Source of the DNA: a virus
Direction: 5' to 3' (one strand)
DNA length: 64,000 nt
IMG/VR virus record: IMGVR_UViG_3300021600_000005
Coordinates: 1 to 64,000 of that record
Below, one piece after another: positions 4,665 through 56,095 of the stretch; position 1 is the first letter of the stretch; every line of letters starts with the position of its first letter. The notes under the pieces are model-generated. The model was not told where the DNA came from. It worked only from the letters and a program-made list of their open reading frames with translations, and did not search any database. A program made the position numbers and the translations under genes.

Positions 4665-5132
4665 ATGATATCTGAAAAATTAAAATCAATTATATTTGAT
4701 AAGTTATATCAGGATTTAAAACATTGTGAGATAATTTCTTACGATAAAAGTATATTTTTTATTGATAGGGATAATAAGTATTGGTATTTTGAATATGAAA
4801 AGGGTGGGACATTATGGTGGAGATACACATTCTTTAATGTTTTTTTTCAATTATTTTCTATAACATATAAGGAATTCCAACCCGTTCTTGGTGAGTGGGT
4901 GGAAGAGGTATTAAATTGTAAGGTATTAACAACAACCAGAAGCCACCTAAACGCTTCCAAATGGATGGAAGAGGTATTAAATTGTAAGGTATTAACAACC
5001 ATAAAAACGTGGCACAACCATTCTATTATGGTGGAAGAGGTATTAAATTGTAAGGTATTAACAACCAAAGGAACCCCCTACCTTGAAAAACATTTGGAAG
5101 ATGTGTTAAATTATAATGAATCTAAAACTTAA
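4665..5132 (+). CDS. Small protein whose C-terminus reads through a CRISPR-like array (WVEEVLNCKVLTT family)
   Basis: Homologous to the MKINITKTQ paralogues; 22-aa periodic C-terminus. Confidence 0.75.
   Translation: MISEKLKSIIFDKLYQDLKHCEIISYDKSIFFIDRDNKYWYFEYEKGGTLWWRYTFFNVFFQLFSITYKEFQPVLGEWVEEVLNCKVLTTTRSHLNASKWMEEVLNCKVLTTIKTWHNHSIMVEEVLNCKVLTTKGTPYLEKHLEDVLNYNESKT
4898..5128. CRISPR. Gene-embedded CRISPR-like mini-array: three 36-nt repeats, one degenerate repeat, spacers of 30/30/27 nt
   Basis: G(G/A)TGGAAGAGGTATTAAATTGTAAGGTATTAACAAC at 4898-4933, 4964-4999, 5030-5065; degenerate copy 5093-5128; spacers mutually unrelated. Confidence 0.6.
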
Positions 5133-26634: not shown

Positions 26635-26943
26635 TTAAGGATAATTATTCATATGTAGGTATATAGTTGAGGTAGTTATATAACCCTTCAAATTTAATGT
26701 TTCCTCCACCCAGTCTTTTGTAATCGACTGAAGTTCTTTATATTCAAGTGAAAACATGGATTCTAAAAATGACCAAATTGTATCATAATCAAAATAAAAT
26801 TGTTTATTTATCCTATCTATCTGAGCAAGTCTTTTTTTATTTTTAACATAATAAGAACCAATAATTTCAACATCAGAAAACATATCGTTTAACCAATCCT
26901 TAACCAATCTTGCCCTTTGCGTTTTTGTTATGTTAATTTTCAT
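26635..26943 (-). CDS. MKINITKTQ paralogue with 36-nt repeat in its 3' end
   Basis: Repeat GGTGGAGGAAACATTAAATTTGAAGGGTTATATAAC at 26710-26675. Confidence 0.75.
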   Translation of the reverse strand: MKINITKTQRARLVKDWLNDMFSDVEIIGSYYVKNKKRLAQIDRINKQFYFDYDTIWSFLESMFSLEYKELQSITKDWVEETLNLKGYITTSTIYLHMNNYP

Positions 26944-26983
26944 TTAATATAAATACTTTAAAATTTAACGACTCTTTCACCGA

Positions 26984-27289
26984 TTATGTCCTCCATATAG
27001 TAGTATTGGGATTATAAGTAGTTTTATGGCCCTTCAAATTTAATGTTTCTTCCACCCAGTCTTCTGTAATAGCTTGCAGTTCCCTATATTCAAGTGAAAA
27101 CACGGATTCTAAAAATAACCAAATTGTATTATAATCAAACCAAAACTCCTTATTTTTTTTATCATGGAAACCAATGTTTTTTTTATTTTTAACATAATAA
27201 GACCCAAGTATTTCAGCATCAGAAAACATATCGTTTAACCAATCCTTAACCAATCTTGCCCTTTGTGTTTTTGTTATGTTAATTTTCAT
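26984..27289 (-). CDS. MKINITKTQ paralogue with repeat-spacer-repeat 3' end
   Basis: Repeat 27056-27021, 39-nt spacer, degenerate repeat 26981-26946 carrying TATTTAT for the next gene. Confidence 0.75.
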   Translation of the reverse strand: MKINITKTQRARLVKDWLNDMFSDAEILGSYYVKNKKNIGFHDKKNKEFWFDYNTIWLFLESVFSLEYRELQAITEDWVEETLNLKGHKTTYNPNTTIWRT

Positions 27290-39886: not shown

Positions 39887-39930
39887 TGACTGGTCAGAAG
39901 AAACATTAAATTTTAAGGTATTTATATAAA

Positions 39931-40245
39931 ATGAAAATTAACATAACTAAAACACAAAGAGCAAGATTGGTTAAGGATTGGTTAAACGATATGTTTTCTG
40001 GTGCTGAAATAAAAAATACTGATTATGGTAATTCTTATTATATTAAAAATGAAAAAAACCTTGCTTTTCAGAATAAAAAAAATAAAGATTTTCGGTTTGA
40101 TTACGACCTAATTTGGTCATTTTTAGAATCCATTTTTTCACTTGAATATGAAGAACTGCAATCTATCACAAAAGACTGGTTGGACGAGACATTAAATTTG
40201 AAGGGATATACAACATCTTATTTACGCAACTTATCTTGGACATAG
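39931..40245 (+). CDS. MKINITKTQ paralogue 1
   Basis: Ends WLDETLNLKGYTT plus spacer-encoded SYLRNLSWT. Confidence 0.75.
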   Translation: MKINITKTQRARLVKDWLNDMFSGAEIKNTDYGNSYYIKNEKNLAFQNKKNKDFRFDYDLIWSFLESIFSLEYEELQSITKDWLDETLNLKGYTTSYLRNLSWT

Positions 40246-40282
40246 TTGGGCGAGACATTAAATTTGAAGGTATTTATATAAA

Positions 40283-40582
40283 ATGAAAATTAACATAACT
40301 AAAACACAAAGGGCAAGATTGGTTAAGGATTGGTTAAACGATATGTTTTCTGATACTGAAATAATTGATTCTTATTATGTTAAAAATGGAAAAAAAATTG
40401 CTTTTCGGGAGAAAGAAAATAAAGAGTTTTGGTTTGATTATGACTTAATTTGGTCATTTTTAGAATCCATGTTTTCACTTAAATATAAAGAACTGCAAGC
40501 TATTACAGAAGACTGGGTGGATGAAACATTAAATTTTAGGGGTTATACAACTTCGCCTCACATGTATCTCGAACAACGTTAG
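40283..40582 (+). CDS. MKINITKTQ paralogue 2
   Basis: Ends WVDETLNFRGYTT plus SPHMYLEQR. Confidence 0.75.
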   Translation: MKINITKTQRARLVKDWLNDMFSDTEIIDSYYVKNGKKIAFREKENKEFWFDYDLIWSFLESMFSLKYKELQAITEDWVDETLNFRGYTTSPHMYLEQR

Positions 40583-40619
40583 GTGGATGAAACATTAAAT
40601 TTGAAAGTAATTATATAAA

Positions 40620-40925
40620 ATGAAAATTAACATAACAAAAACACAAAGAGCAAGATTGGTTAAGGAATGGTTAAACGATATGTTTTCTGATGTTGAAATT
40701 ATTGGTTCTTTTGATAATAGAGGAGTGACTTATAGTAAAAACGGAGAAAATATTGCTTTCCAGGATAAAAAAGATAAAGACTTTTGGTTTGATTATGATA
40801 TAATTTGGTTATTTTTAGAATCTATGTTTTCGCTCGAATATGAAGAACTGCAATCCATTACAGAAGACTGGTTGGAAAAAACATTAAATTTGAAAGGTTA
40901 TAGAACGTCAGGGGCTCCAGTGTAA
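40620..40925 (+). CDS. MKINITKTQ paralogue 3
   Basis: Ends WLEKTLNLKGYRT plus SGAPV. Confidence 0.75.
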   Translation: MKINITKTQRARLVKEWLNDMFSDVEIIGSFDNRGVTYSKNGENIAFQDKKDKDFWFDYDIIWLFLESMFSLEYEELQSITEDWLEKTLNLKGYRTSGAPV

Positions 40926-41084
40926 TTAAACACATTTGTTGGATGAGACATTAAATTTAAGGGACAAACAAGTATATTAACTGACATTATGTCAGTTTTT
41001 TTATGCTTGGTATAATTTTTAATATGTGGGGTTTGTGCTTGACACATTAAAATTAAAAATATATATTTTAATAAAAAATTATTT

Positions 41085-42956
41085 ATGGGTAAAATTATTG
41101 GTATTGATTTAGGAACTACGAATTCGTGTGTTTCTGTAATGGAAAATGGGGAACCTGTTGTTATAACAAATAACGAAGGAAAAAGAACCACCCCCTCAAT
41201 TGTTGGTTTTTTAAAAGATGGTGAAAGAAAAATTGGTGACCCGGCAAAAAGACAATCGGTTACAAATCCAACTAACACTGTTTATTCAATAAAAAGATTT
41301 ATGGGGTTAAATTTTGACGAATCAAAATCAGAAATTAAAAAAGTACCTTATAAAGTTGTTAAAGGTGATAATAATACAACTAGAGTTGATATTGACGGAA
41401 AATTATATTCTCCTCAAGAAATTTCATCAGTTATTTTACAAAAAATGAAACAAACTGCTGAAGATTATTTAGGTCAAGAAGTGACTGAAGCGGTTATTAC
41501 AGTTCCGGCTTATTTTAACGACGCTCAACGTCAATCAACAAAAGAAGCCGCAGAAATTGTTGGGTTAAAAGTTGCTAGAATTATTAATGAGCCTACAGCT
41601 GCCGCCTTAGCTTATGGTTTTGACAAAAAAGATAAAGATATGAAAATCGTTGTTTTTGATTGTGGTGGAGGAACTCACGATGTTTCAGTGTTACAATTAG
41701 GAGATGGTATTTTTGAAGTGTTATCTACTGACGGAAATACTCATTTAGGTGGAGATGATTTTGATGACGTTATTATTGACTATTTAGTAAAAGAGTTTAA
41801 AAAAGATAATGGTATTGACCTTAAAAAAGATTCAATGGCGTTACAACGATTGAGAGAGGCGGCTGAAAAAGCTAAAATAGAACTTTCTTCGTCGATTTCA
41901 ACTGAAATTAATTTACCTTACATTATGCCGGTAGACGGTATTCCTAAACATTTGGTTACTAATTTAACAAGGTCAAAATTTGAACAATTAGTTAATGATT
42001 TAGTTAAAAAAACAATTAACCCATGTAAATCCGCTTTAGAAAAGGCTAAATTAAAAGTATCGGATATTGATGAAATTATTCTTGTTGGGGGGTCAACTCG
42101 TATTCCAGTTATTCAACAAGCGGTGAAAGACTTTTTTGGTAAAGAACCGTCAAAAAGTGTTAATCCTGATGAAGTTGTTGCTCTTGGAGCCGCAATTCAA
42201 GGGGGAGTATTAGGTGGTGACGTTAAAGATGTTTTATTATTAGATGTTACTCCGTTATCCTTAGGTATTGAAACTATGGGAGGTGTTTTTACTAAATTAA
42301 TAGATTCAAATACAACTATTCCAACCAGACAGTCTCAAGTATTTTCGACAGCTGTTGATAATCAACCAAGTGTAGAAATACATGTTTTGCAAGGCGAACG
42401 TCCAATGTCATCCGATAACAAAACAATTGGAAGATTTCATTTAGATGGACTTCCTCCGGCTCGTAGAGGAACACCTCAAATTGAAGTGGTTTTTGATATT
42501 GACGCTAATGGTATTATAAATGTTTCAGCAATTGATAAAGCGACTGATAAAAAACAATCAATACGTATTGAATCATCTACTGGTTTATCAAAAGAAGAAA
42601 TTCAAAAAATGAAACAAGACGCTGAGTTAAACGCCGAATCAGACAAAAAGAAAAAAGAAGATGTTGAAACGTTAAATACTGCGGACAACTTAATGTTTCA
42701 AACTGAGAAAACTTTAAATGAAAGTGAAACTAAAATTCCATCGGATAAAAAAACTGAAATTGATAACACAATTAAAGAACTAAGACAACATCATTTAGAA
42801 AAAAATATTCCAATGGTTGAAAAATTAATGGGTGAACTTAATGAACAAATTCAAAAAGTTGTTAGTGTGATGTACGAATCAAAAGAACCTCAAGATAATT
42901 CCACAGAAAATTCTGGTGAAAACTTAACAGATGTTGAGTTTGAAAACGTTAAATAA
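41085..42956 (+). CDS. dnaK: Chaperone DnaK (Hsp70)
   Basis: [40 protein letters not shown]; Bacteroidetes-like tail DVEFENVK. Confidence 0.98.
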
Positions 42957-48781: not shown

Positions 48782-48853
48782 GCCCCCGTAGGTAAAGGGA
48801 TATACCAAAAATTTTCTAAATTTTCGTTTCTGGTTCGAGTCCAGACGGGGGTA
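48782..48853 (+). tRNA. tRNA-Arg(UCU)
   Basis: GCCCCCG/CGGGGGT acceptor stem; AAAAT-TTTCTAA-ATTTT anticodon arm; TCTGG-TTCGAGT-CCAGA T-arm; CCA not encoded. Confidence 0.85.
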
Positions 48854-51497: not shown

Positions 51498-51568
51498 AGT
51501 CAGGTGGCGGAATGGTAGACGCAGGTATCTCAAGATATGATTACAAGGTTCGATTCCTGTTCTGATTA
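51498..51568 (+). tRNA. Degenerate tRNA-Leu-like element
   Basis: Leu-type D-arm GCGGAATGGTAGACGC; T-loop GGTTCGATTCC; acceptor AGTCAGG/TCTGATT; anticodon arm irregular; no long variable arm. Confidence 0.55.
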
Positions 51569-53944: not shown

Positions 53945-54808
53945 TTATCCGTTTGACGGATTAAAATGAAACCTTCGGGTTAATTTTGAACTCCGTCAAT
54001 AAATGATAATCGGCCGTGTATGGTCGTTAAATAAACCACGAAAGTGGGATAAAGTGAATTTACTTGTGTTAGTAAGTTTGCGGTTTCTTTAGAAACTCGA
54101 GTACACAAGTGGGATATCATCCGACCTTTATTACTGAGGGCGACGCTTTAAGGAAAGTGGTTGGATGGTTTGGGAATGTGGATTCTCAAACTGAGTTCGG
54201 AAGAACAATAAAAGTAACCCATAGGAATCAAGTAAAAAATGTGGCACCAACCATATAATTGCGGGTTCCAATGTTAAAGAGGACTTAAAACCGAAAGGTA
54301 AGATAAAGAACAAGTGGTGTTGTTATTATCCTTACATATCATCCGCCAAGATGTATGTTTGAAGTAATCTTAAAATATTGAGATAGGGATATTTCACTGA
54401 GTAGAAAAGCATTTTGATTCTCAAAAGGAGTTGAAGCTTAAGATGGACCTCTACTTGGACGCATCCACGACACATAAAACTTATACCAAATTTTAAGTAA
54501 AATTAAACTAAATATAAGCAAAAGTGTTCATCAGGTTTTGATGAAAGTCGCCTACATAGTCATGGGTTGTCCATGGCATACTAAGACCGCAAGTCGAAGT
54601 ATATTTTTACCAAAAACCTCTAAGGAGTCGAATCCTGAGTTAACTCGCAAGGTTAAGGAGAGTGGAGTAGTAAAAGAGTAGTTGAAACCTTTAGGAGTGA
54701 TTAGTCTAACTAATCGGCGATGAGACTTACCATTCAAAAGATGGTGGAAACAAAGGGAACTAATAATCCTTTAAAAGATTCTCACATATAGGTGTATTCT
54801 CAGCCTAA
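53945..54808 (+). ncRNA. Large structured ncRNA, GOLLD-like
   Basis: ~850 nt without a credible ORF; many GNRA/UUCG hairpins (CCTTCGGG, CACGAAAGTG, ACCGAAAGGT, CCGCAAG, CTCGCAAG); recurrent GAGTAG; tRNA/tmRNA neighbourhood. Confidence 0.65.
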
Positions 54809-55702: not shown

Positions 55703-56095
55703 TGGTGGAGGCGGAGGGCTCCGACTCCCTCGTCCAAGTAACCCCGATTAACCAGGACTACACGCTTAGTATAAAGTTTTCTAACTTTCCAAAAATACTT
55801 AATTCTCTTATTTTATAGTGGTTCGATTTATCAAGAACTTAACTTCCACTTGTCTCTTTTTGGGTAGAGTCCACACCATTGCAAGGACTTCTGTTCCTAG
55901 GTTATATGTCCGCCGACCCGAAACTGTTACTTAATCTAATTAAGCTACAGCAACTTCCTCAGTACGGATTAATCCAACTGATGAAAGTTTGTTGATGATG
56001 TTATCACCTGAAAAGTAAACCAGTTTTTACAAGGTTAGTTTAGCCTCGACGTGCCCCAATTAACAGAAAAAACCTGTCAAATCCAAAGCGCCCCC
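55703..56095 (-). ncRNA. ssrA: tmRNA
   Basis: 5' GGGGGCG..GGATTTGAC; 3' CGCCTCCACCA with G3:U wobble; tag ORF 56008-55940 GDNIINKLSSVGLIRTEEVAVA*. Confidence 0.9.

Follow-up and report, generated by a model that had tools for sequence, protein, structure and literature searches.

What would a CRISPR-like array be doing at the end of a phage gene, and how would it be filled in a phage in which no cas gene is found? The question is raised by three tandem paralogous genes of about 100 aa each, lying within positions 39888-40997 of a 64,000-nt stretch of DNA (hereafter the window; positions 1 to 64,000 of IMG/VR record IMGVR_UViG_3300021600_000005) from an uncultured freshwater jumbo phage. The 3' end of each gene is made of a 36-nt repeat, a unique spacer (30, 30 and 31 nt) and a second copy of the repeat, and a terminator ends the unit. 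A preliminary description had proposed either mini-arrays that hijack or decoy Cas proteins of the host, or integration targets producing variable protein tails. Our analysis leads us to regard them as probably being orphan CRISPR mini-arrays of type VI-B descent that have become joined to a phage gene, with an integrase of the host filling them in trans.

Organization of the three-gene unit

All features of the unit lie on the + strand. Gene 1 (39931..40245, from the list of ORFs) encodes a small folded phage protein of 104 aa. Its first repeat (40179..40214, 36 nt) is of the GTTGG...TTTGAAGGG...ACAAC type, and is followed by spacer 1 (40215..40244, 30 nt), which is unique and codes for the protein tail and for the TA of the TAG stop. 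The terminal repeat of this array (40245..40270) breaks off after 26 nt, where the leader of gene 2 takes over; within this repeat, a TAAATTTG box is located 17 nt 5' of the ATG. Gene 2 (40283..40582, 99 aa, from the list of ORFs and a homology search) contains a private variant of the repeat, TTTTAGGGG (40516..40551), the same variant that is duplicated in the related locus L008 (see below), and then spacer 2 (40552..40581, 30 nt), common to L008 and to another relative, L012 (one mismatch in L012). Its terminal repeat (40582..40607) also ends after 26 nt, giving way to the leader of gene 3 (40620..40925, 101 aa). The repeat of gene 3 lies at 40871..40906, and the stop codon of the gene falls inside spacer 3 (40907..40937, 31 nt), which is common to L010 and L012. 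The last terminal repeat (40938..40972) is full-length yet degenerate, with one base deleted. An intrinsic-terminator-like hairpin followed by a T run (40979..41004) closes the three-gene unit; two such sites were found, for 0.3 expected.

The repeat-spacer-repeat layout of the three paralogues, as first described, was thus recovered at exact coordinates, including the two TAG stops that straddle a spacer/repeat junction (40243-45 and 40580-82) and the spacer-coded C-termini (last 9, 9 and 4-5 residues in genes 1, 2 and 3). A second repeat is indeed present after each spacer, but the copies of genes 1 and 2 match the first 26 nt only. Recoding of TAG was considered and rejected, as stop usage is ordinary (TAA 82, TAG 12, TGA 12) and DnaK is readable under table 11. 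Allowing 3 mismatches at most, we counted 14 occurrences of the 16-nt repeat core in the window, versus 4.75 +/- 2.0 in shuffled sequences. For the promoter motif TANNTTTG, the window has 127 copies where 130 are expected, hence no enrichment.

An extra partial copy of the repeat, absent from the earlier description, lies upstream of gene 1 (39888..39918, + strand). Detected by the repeat-family search, it consists of two pre-repeat codons and the first 26 nt of the repeat, fused directly to the gene 1 leader, and its +1-frame translation gives the C-terminal motif of the family. Since these codons are the ones found just ahead of the repeat in the genes themselves, the copy looks like what remains of the 3' end of a lost gene.

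Other copies and relatives

The same gene-repeat-spacer-repeat design is found in a second cluster of two paralogues (26635..27289, - strand), one spacer of which is 39 nt long: compared with L011, 9 nt are inserted in a 30-nt spacer. A distant paralogue (4665..5132, + strand) carries an array of three spacers, translated in frame, with periods of 66, 66 and 63 nt; its homology to the genes of the unit, noticed from the outset, holds (E 4.3e-5, plus alignment). In all, there are six gene copies of the family within the 90-kb record, and some 15 other contigs, viral or metagenomic, show the design downstream of homologues. The protein family has more than 600 members, with 615 homologues found. 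The protein belongs to a wider phage family, in which many members have no array.

On the approximately 15 contigs, 29 of 38 spacers are exactly 30 nt long and periods range from 65 to 68 nt, and 12 further spacers in a complete related phage (G002) measure 27-31 nt. Both sets support the suggestion that a fixed 36/30 geometry persists across divergent repeat lineages. Repeats are identical within an array and spacers are unrelated, so that the loci present the near-identical direct repeats of 23-55 nt and the unique spacers of constant length that define CRISPR arrays in general. Some arrays are irregular: that of L001 departs from the reading frame and contains stops, and that of L006 is degenerate, with diverged in-frame units and periods of 66, 66, 66, 51, 63 and 66 nt, all multiples of three, and hence behaves like a translated protein repeat. 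In L010, the second repeat resembles a hybrid between the repeats of neighboring paralogues; recombination between such repeats can account for some of the array differences among relatives.

The protein and its spacer-coded tail

Two lines of evidence indicate that the protein is real, the repeat-coded segment included. Its dN/dS is 0.52 in frame, versus 0.76 and 1.37 off frame, and AlphaFold2 predicts for the gene 1 product a small folded protein (pLDDT 91.5, pTM 0.83), in which residues 83-96, coded by the first repeat, form the last folded segment, made of a final helix turn and the last strand. The spacer-coded tail is predicted to be disordered (pLDDT about 52). Searches for known relatives gave little: neither Pfam nor PHROGs had a significant match to the proteins, ESM Atlas returned unnamed viral clusters alone, Foldseek found no match in the PDB, and a wide VIA-align search gave at best Z 5.0 (MCM N-terminal domain) along with weak winged-helix-like rows, all within noise.

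Tails are highly variable, with more than 45 different ones among 120 homologues and lengths of 4 to 12 residues. No sign of selection on them was detected when stop-free spacers were counted among the 38: there are 24 in the frame of the ORF, versus 28 in the +1 frame.

Spacer turnover

Near-identical phages differ by whole repeat-plus-spacer units, which indicates that the arrays are still gaining spacers, in the absence of any cas gene found in the phage. The clearest case is L008: when compared with the window and L012, about 200 nt of flanks are 100% identical except for one 68-nt insertion, which is an exact copy of the private 36-nt repeat variant of gene 2 plus 32 new nt. The extra unit sits on the gene side, between the gene and the old spacer. 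Similarly, three relatives with bodies 97-100% identical (P0113, P0114 and P0120) have their distal spacer in common and contain 3, 3 and 7 spacers, respectively; P0120 and the window have the distal spacer alone in common, and P0012 has one additional proximal spacer. Degenerate repeats are found at the gene-distal end of arrays. A polarized gain of units between close relatives, together with a degenerate distal repeat, is again what defines a CRISPR array.

As to where the spacers come from, their GC content is 0.37, versus 0.28 and 0.32 in random phage 30-mers (z 5.3 and 3.3). Beyond shared spacers, no match was found elsewhere in the 90-kb record and two related jumbo phages (G000, G002 and G003; relatives are few) or at the other loci. 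Neither spacers 1-3 in GenBank phages nor the three spacer cores in IMG/VR had a match, and a BLAST of the 4665 array against a sample of 101 genomes of the phylum to which G001 belongs gave chance-level matches in unrelated ORFs. As no protospacer appeared in these collections, it is by their composition and uniqueness that the spacers seem to be of foreign origin. Diversification of the type produced by diversity-generating retroelements (DGRs) was also considered and rejected, the spacers having no template-like similarity.

Kinship of the repeats with type VI-B

The preliminary description had noted that the repeat ends look like those of type VI-B, and this likeness holds against published Flavobacterium repeats (F. 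columnare and F. branchiophilum, Table 4 of PMC5395568). In sense orientation, alignment to the VI-B repeat of F. columnare gives z 5.5-7.9 (7.4 for the gene 1 repeat), and alignment to that of F. branchiophilum gives z 3.3-6.1; the L001 repeat matches VI-B at 29 of 36 positions. Against II-C and V-A-type repeats from the same source, z is mostly below 2.5, with one outlier at 4.0. Alignment therefore shows the repeats to be related in sequence to those of Flavobacterium type VI-B, and not of II-C or V-A; a 36-nt repeat akin to bona fide VI-B ones, with 30-nt spacers, is what a VI-B array is made of. Broader searches returned little. When 185,579 species genomes were scanned with a pattern of the positions that the phage repeats share, no CRISPR array came up, the only match being a chance-level one in a Rhodohalobacter MAG, and the pattern itself misses the published VI-B repeats. 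Among the CRISPR-DR families of Rfam, none reached the gathering threshold for the window, and none was found at E up to 10 for L001.

The kinship does not extend to the RNA structure. Cas13b binds and cleaves a hairpin made by the whole repeat (PMC13187072), and for real VI-B repeats the folding energies are -10.9 and -12.2 kcal/mol. Those of the window repeats are 0 to -0.9 kcal/mol (-0.7 for gene 1), no different from shuffled sequences, so that the internal hairpin, which had looked weak by eye, is confirmed to be so. The Cas13b hairpin is thus lost from the window repeats, and the whole-repeat RNA hairpin expected of a VI-B array is not found in them. An inner 5-bp stem is retained in the L001/L002 lineage. 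Use of the arrays at the RNA level is doubtful in this phage.

Absence of detectable cas genes

Our search of the rest of the phage for cas genes covered part of the genome: in the 90-kb record, which represents about 30% of a complete genome, no ORF exceeds 700 aa, and by this measure of length none could encode Cas13b or Cas9. The two CheckV-complete relatives, G002 and G003 (309 and 326 kb), lack Cas1 (PF01867), and eight of the ten G002 ORFs of at least 900 aa (all 904 to 1684 aa) had no cas match. The associated cas genes that usually accompany a CRISPR array were therefore not found, neither in the partial record nor, for Cas1, in the complete relatives. Given that the record is about 30% complete, an integrase or an effector may nevertheless be encoded elsewhere in the phage genome.

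How could the arrays be used?

Several scenarios are considered besides host-driven filling. The arrays may be guides or decoys for a host Cas13b, their mRNAs being cut into crRNAs that redirect the enzyme, or their repeat RNAs titrating it in the manner of Racrs or ecrRNAs. The repeats are VI-B-like in the transcribed orientation, there are six gene copies per 90 kb, the L001/L002 lineage keeps its inner stem, and an overexpressed leader-derived ecrRNA sequesters Cas13b and lowers defense about 1000-fold (PMC13187072). However, the window repeats fold like shuffled sequences where Cas13b needs a whole-repeat hairpin; a VI-B crRNA consists of a spacer and the downstream repeat, which in genes 1 and 2 is just 26 nt long; the phage repeat pattern finds no host repeat (with the caveat that it also misses published VI-B ones); and no spacer had a match in the few related phages available (G000, G002, G003 and the loci). 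Hijacking or Racr-like decoying of Cas13b, as initially proposed, is hence unlikely in this phage. A phage-encoded miniature nuclease of type V, similar to Cas12f or TnpB, may be the user instead, the arrays supplying it with repeat-then-spacer guides. Such a crRNA requires an intact repeat upstream of the spacer, an arrangement seen here, and can do without the downstream copy. Moreover, G002 encodes a 443-aa Cas12f-like protein (Pfam Cas12f1-like_TNB 2.5e-20; PADLOC Cas12f 1.7e-31), and about 230 nt downstream of its gene lies an array of four clean repeats with 29-30-nt spacers, the repeat of which aligns to the window repeats with z 4.2-5.6. (This array has one extra degenerate repeat at its gene-proximal end.) Yet a Cas12f-like nuclease adjacent to an array, as in type V-F, is present in G002 alone: no TNB domain was found in the 90-kb record of the window (G000), in the complete G003, or in G004 and G005. 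Furthermore, the family repeats of G002 are only weakly similar to its own Cas12f-array repeat (z 2.1-3.3, with sequences slightly out of register). We consider this scenario, too, to have a small chance of being correct.

Alternatively, the protein may be the selected product, spacer integration serving to generate variable C-terminal tails on a multi-copy family. The first repeat is in frame and within the fold, dN/dS is fairly high, and paralogues of the same genome bear different tails, in line with the diversity seen among homologues. The tails are short and predicted to be disordered, however, stop-free spacers are not more common in the ORF frame than in the +1 frame, and arrays with periods of 65, 67 or 68 nt go out of frame, which makes this scenario improbable. 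Of the earlier proposal of integration targets producing variable tails, integration thus gains from the clean insertion in L008 and from the number of different tails, while nothing indicates that the tails are selected. Finally, the loci may result from plain tandem duplication of a gene containing a protein repeat, unrelated to CRISPR: a 66-nt period makes 22 codons, the units of L006 are in frame and diverged, and recombination between repeats does occur. This explanation is very hard to maintain and is already contradicted by the array geometry (identical repeats with unrelated spacers, non-codon periods, and out-of-frame stretches with stops in some arrays), by the significant alignment to VI-B repeats and by the clean repeat-plus-spacer insertion in L008.

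A proposed model for filling in trans

Filling of the mini-arrays by a host integrase has a precedent. In F. columnare, it was shown experimentally that the Cas1-Cas2 of a II-C system fills, in trans, VI-B arrays that lack cas1/2 (PMC8092290). By analogy with that II-C system, the host would be the likely source of the integrase acting on the phage loci. The gene serves as the leader of its array, and Cas1-Cas2 would add repeat-plus-spacer units in trans at the gene-proximal end, while recombination between repeats would remove units again. The first repeat is translated as the last helix turn and strand of the protein, and the spacer provides a disordered tail and a stop, either directly or at the junction. 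The 26-nt copies of genes 1 and 2 are joined to the beginning of the gene that follows, for which unequal crossing-over between repeats is the simplest explanation. Since the repeat RNA of this lineage has no Cas13b hairpin, we infer that the arrays are more likely to be integration targets, either tolerated by-products or an integrase sink, than working Cas13b guides.

The sink could conceivably be a counter-defense acting at the adaptation stage, although we rate this as a minor possibility: leader-repeat mimics, expressed and in multiple copies, would soak up the Cas1-Cas2 of the host and divert new spacers into the phage. The spacer-coded tails would then be footprints of integration events, and a gene end with a tail-tolerant fold would render the sink harmless to the phage.

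Comparison with known systems

Off-target spacer integration at leader-repeat-like sites, named 'neo-CRISPR', was reportedly described by Nivala et al. in 2018. The term is used in 10.1101/148544. As in that case, the phage loci involve duplication of a repeat and insertion of a spacer away from a canonical CRISPR locus; unlike it, they do not sit on a one-off chance site but on a VI-B-like repeat that is conserved, multi-copy and retained in hundreds of phage genes.

Viral mini-arrays devoid of cas genes are known (reviewed in PMC11656645), as are huge-phage arrays without Cas1/2 and effectors (PMC7162821). The present arrays resemble viral mini-arrays in the low number of spacers, from one to a few, in the lack of neighboring adaptation genes, and in the Cas proteins presumed to act in trans. 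In known mini-arrays, however, repeats are identical to those of the host and spacers are mostly directed against related viruses, neither of which was found here in our searches; here, moreover, the first repeat is translated within the fold of a conserved protein, cassettes are in tandem and the structure of the repeat RNA is lost. With the F. columnare VI-B arrays, they share 36-nt repeats of the GTTGG...TTTGAAGGG...ACAAC type and 30-nt spacers (PMC8092290; PMC5395568), the leader-to-array orientation and a locus without cas1/cas2, but they are phage-borne, no cas13b is seen, the window repeats have no hairpin, and the leader is a protein-coding gene. As for Racrs (PMC10651486) and ecrRNAs (PMC13187072), a phage-borne mimic of a repeat could occupy a Cas effector. 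Racrs are non-coding, share at least 90% identity with repeats of the host, and have been reported for every type but VI (PMC10651486), whereas the repeat described here is unstructured and, instead of being solitary, is located inside an ORF, with a spacer and another repeat after it. As the tool of the Racr survey masks ORFs (PMC10651486), it would miss repeats located within genes.

In the literature searched, we found no description of an array with a first repeat that contributes to the structure of a conserved protein, let alone in a family of this size, of a type VI-like repeat carried by a virus, or of spacer turnover despite loss of the hairpin of the presumed effector. If the integrase is that of the host, these loci would naturally record the DNA available to Cas1-Cas2 in infected cells, and would provide a direct test of the minimal repeat that an integrase needs. 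If the arrays are an integrase sink, or guides for a miniature phage nuclease, they would represent a new viral mode of CRISPR exploitation.

Setting and layout of the loci

The IMG/VR record (90,168 nt, of which the window is the first 64 kb; 28% GC; completeness about 30% by CheckV) is a fragment of a jumbo phage, since it encodes a GOLLD RNA (306.8 bits), a tmRNA and two tRNA genes (RNA sites 54397-54806, 55703-56095 on the minus strand, 48782-48853 and 51498-51568), and a full-length DnaK gene (41085-42956, directly 3' of the cassettes) whose DNA is 67-70% identical to that of DnaK from uncultured phages of 484-735 kb. Window DNA occurs in contigs and sequencing runs from freshwater and lake metagenomes.

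Three tandem paralogues, genes 1 (39931-40245, 104 aa), 2 (40283-40582, 99 aa) and 3 (40620-40925, 101 aa), each carry at the 3' end a 36-nt repeat, followed by a unique spacer (30, 30 and 31 nt, respectively) and a second repeat copy. This layout, reported in the preliminary description, was confirmed in the sequence and is real, beyond chance. The straddling of the spacer/repeat junction by two TAG stops was also found as described: in genes 1 and 2 the stop consists of the last two spacer bases and the first base of the next repeat, and gene 3 stops within its own spacer. Behind the spacers of genes 1 and 2, the second copy matches over 26 nt only, lacks the last ten bases of the repeat and gives way to the conserved leader of the next gene; unequal crossing-over is the simplest explanation for such a junction. 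The final copy (40938-40972) has its full length, although degenerate, and precedes a terminator-like hairpin (40979-40997). At the other extremity, a partial copy (39888-39918) still carries the two codons found just ahead of the repeat in the genes, and we read it as the probable stump of a lost upstream paralogue.

Two further loci have the same gene-repeat-spacer-repeat design, 26635-27289 on the minus strand and 4665-5132, the latter with three spacers. One spacer (26982-27020, minus strand) measures 39 nt; the relative L011 has 30 nt at the same place and misses nine internal bases, so that the greater length is due to a secondary 9-nt insertion.

Repeats of the window lineage include TAAATTTG, a fit to the -7 promoter box of Bacteroidota, TAnnTTTG (40193-40200, 40259-40266, 40596-40603, 40885-40892, and, on the minus strand, 26689-26696 and 27035-27042). 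In the truncated downstream repeats this box lies 17 nt ahead of the ATG of the next gene, and these copies may therefore double as promoters. The motif is not enriched across the window as a whole.

Arrays of CRISPR type behind a conserved protein

A profile search collected 615 homologous proteins, all unnamed, and repeat-spacer structure was present behind close homologues on every contig with readable downstream DNA. Exactly 30 nt separate the repeats in 29 of the 38 distinct spacers, and repeat periods are 65-68 nt, which means that array spacing is not tied to codons. At locus L001, from another contig, five clean repeats and a degenerate sixth leave the ORF frame and cross stop codons, the last copies being degenerate there too. 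Could these be protein repeats? Within one array the repeats are identical or nearly so and the spacers are without any similarity, which is not how a protein repeat behaves, and this explanation is very unlikely. A distant homologue (L006:2683-3135) has diverged repeats with periods of 66, 66, 66, 51, 63 and 66 nt, all multiples of three and all within a single long ORF, and has the look of an ancient array now kept and read as a 22-residue protein repeat. The array detector also picked up, incidentally, long runs of an 18-nt tandem repeat at 28.7-30.9 kb of the relative G003 (L043:8700-10900), unrelated to the mini-arrays.

The small-gene frame stays open across hundreds of homologues in DNA of 28% GC, and dN/dS is 0.52 in frame versus 0.76 and 1.37 out of frame. 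The AlphaFold2 model is confident (pLDDT 91.5, pTM 0.83): one helix leads into a four-stranded sheet, after which come two helices and a closing strand. The repeat-coded residues 83-96 complete the last helix and make up the closing strand, and the spacer-coded tail is disordered. Stop-free spacers are no commoner in the ORF frame (24 of 38) than in the +1 frame (28 of 38), giving no evidence that tail readability is kept. Neither structure nor sequence searches returned a relative of known function. A repeat-pair scan found no pair at about 7 of 12 family matches in G002 and 4 of 5 in G003, both CheckV-complete relatives, and the family thus seems older and wider than its link with arrays. 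Its N-terminus reads MK-x-x-I-T-K/E (39931-39960, 40283-40312 and 40620-40649 in the window).

Kinship with type VI-B repeats

The repeats of Flavobacterium columnare CRISPR-2, the type VI-B locus studied in PMC8092290, and of the F. branchiophilum arrays are published (PMC5395568, Table 4). Phage repeats align with both in sense orientation, at z 5.5-7.9 over shuffles for the F. columnare VI-B repeat, with 29 of 36 positions matching for L001, versus mostly z < 2.5 (one outlier at 4.0) for the F. columnare II-C repeat and a V-A-type repeat. The 5'-GTTGT end common to II-C and VI-B repeats is leader-distal (PMC8092290), from which we infer a leader-proximal position for the GTTGG end and transcription in the direction from leader to array; on the phage, genes and arrays are ordered like the F. 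columnare VI-B leader and array. The VI-B resemblance proposed in the preliminary description is borne out by these alignments and this order.

The suggestion that the arrays hijack or decoy host Cas13b fares less well. Genuine VI-B repeats fold into a whole-repeat hairpin (-10.9 and -12.2 kcal/mol), of which L001 retains the inner 5-bp stem alone (-5.8 kcal/mol), whereas the window repeats, at 0 to -0.9 kcal/mol, all lack structure and fold no better than shuffles; the internal hairpin had indeed been suspected to be weak. In genes 1 and 2 the spacer is followed by a repeat that is ten bases short at its end, and no array among 185,579 species (one genome each) matches the shared positions of the phage repeats, a pattern that would itself miss published VI-B repeats. 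All three results argue against Cas13b use.

Spacer turnover and possible roles

Around one array, the window, L012 and L008 have some 200 nt of flanks identical save one mismatch in L012. L008 alone carries a 68-nt insertion between the gene and the old spacer, in which gene 2's own repeat variant is copied exactly and joined to 32 new bases. This would be exactly the footprint expected of spacer insertion at the leader-repeat junction with repeat duplication. At the protein level, bodies are 97-100% identical among the homologues P0113 (the window's 4665 gene), P0114 and P0120, which also have a common distal spacer and carry 3, 3 and 7 spacers in total; the distal spacer is the only one that P0120 shares with the window. 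P0012 has one additional proximal spacer relative to the 27-kb gene. Some array differences can instead be put down to recombination between repeats, and the second repeat of L010 resembles a hybrid of two neighbouring repeats. Spacer gain and loss in these arrays are active or recent.

The spacers look foreign to the phage, with a mean GC of 0.37 versus 0.28 for random phage 30-mers (z 5.3) and 0.32 for G002 30-mers (z 3.3). They match nothing elsewhere in the phage record, G002, G003 or the other loci compared, and neither GenBank phages nor IMG/VR gave a significant match to any of the three window spacers.

Which enzymes might act on these arrays? The 90-kb record has no ORF above 700 aa, Cas1 is absent from G002 (309 kb) and G003 (326 kb), which carry the family, and eight of the ten G002 ORFs of at least 900 aa (904-1684 aa) have no cas match. 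We propose that the host is the most likely source of an integrase acting in trans, as has been shown in F. columnare for VI-B arrays devoid of cas1/2 (PMC8092290). In a less probable rival reading, prompted by G002, the dispersed arrays would feed a phage nuclease using repeat-then-spacer guides: G002 encodes a 443-aa Cas12f/TnpB-like protein (L036:11950-13783, that is 291950-293783, minus strand; Cas12f1-like TNB domain, E 2.5e-20), followed by a structured gap of about 230 nt and an array of four clean repeats and a degenerate gene-proximal one, with spacers of 29-30 nt. Its repeat is also of the GTTGG...TTTGAAAGG...ACAAC kind (z 4.2-5.6 against window repeats), and resembles the small-gene and Flavobacterium VI-B repeats alike. 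An intact upstream repeat with a dispensable downstream copy would suit such a nuclease; however, no Cas12f-like gene was seen in G003, G004, G005 or the phage record (about 30% complete). The first ~40 residues of the Cas12f-like protein (L036:13690-13783) recur at two further sites in G002 and at one in G003 (60-67% over 30 aa), which suggests a common N-terminal signal.

No published description of a gene-fused, translated mini-array was found in the literature searched. In the survey of Racrs, ORFs were masked ahead of the search and no solitary repeats of type VI were reported from viruses (PMC10651486), which may be why such loci escaped notice. The best description of the locus is a multi-copy phage gene to which orphan CRISPR mini-arrays derived from VI-B are fused, the arrays being partly translated as part of that gene. 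As for the benefit to the phage, the arrays may be a tolerated by-product, act as a sink for the integrase, provide guides to a phage nuclease or diversify the protein tails.
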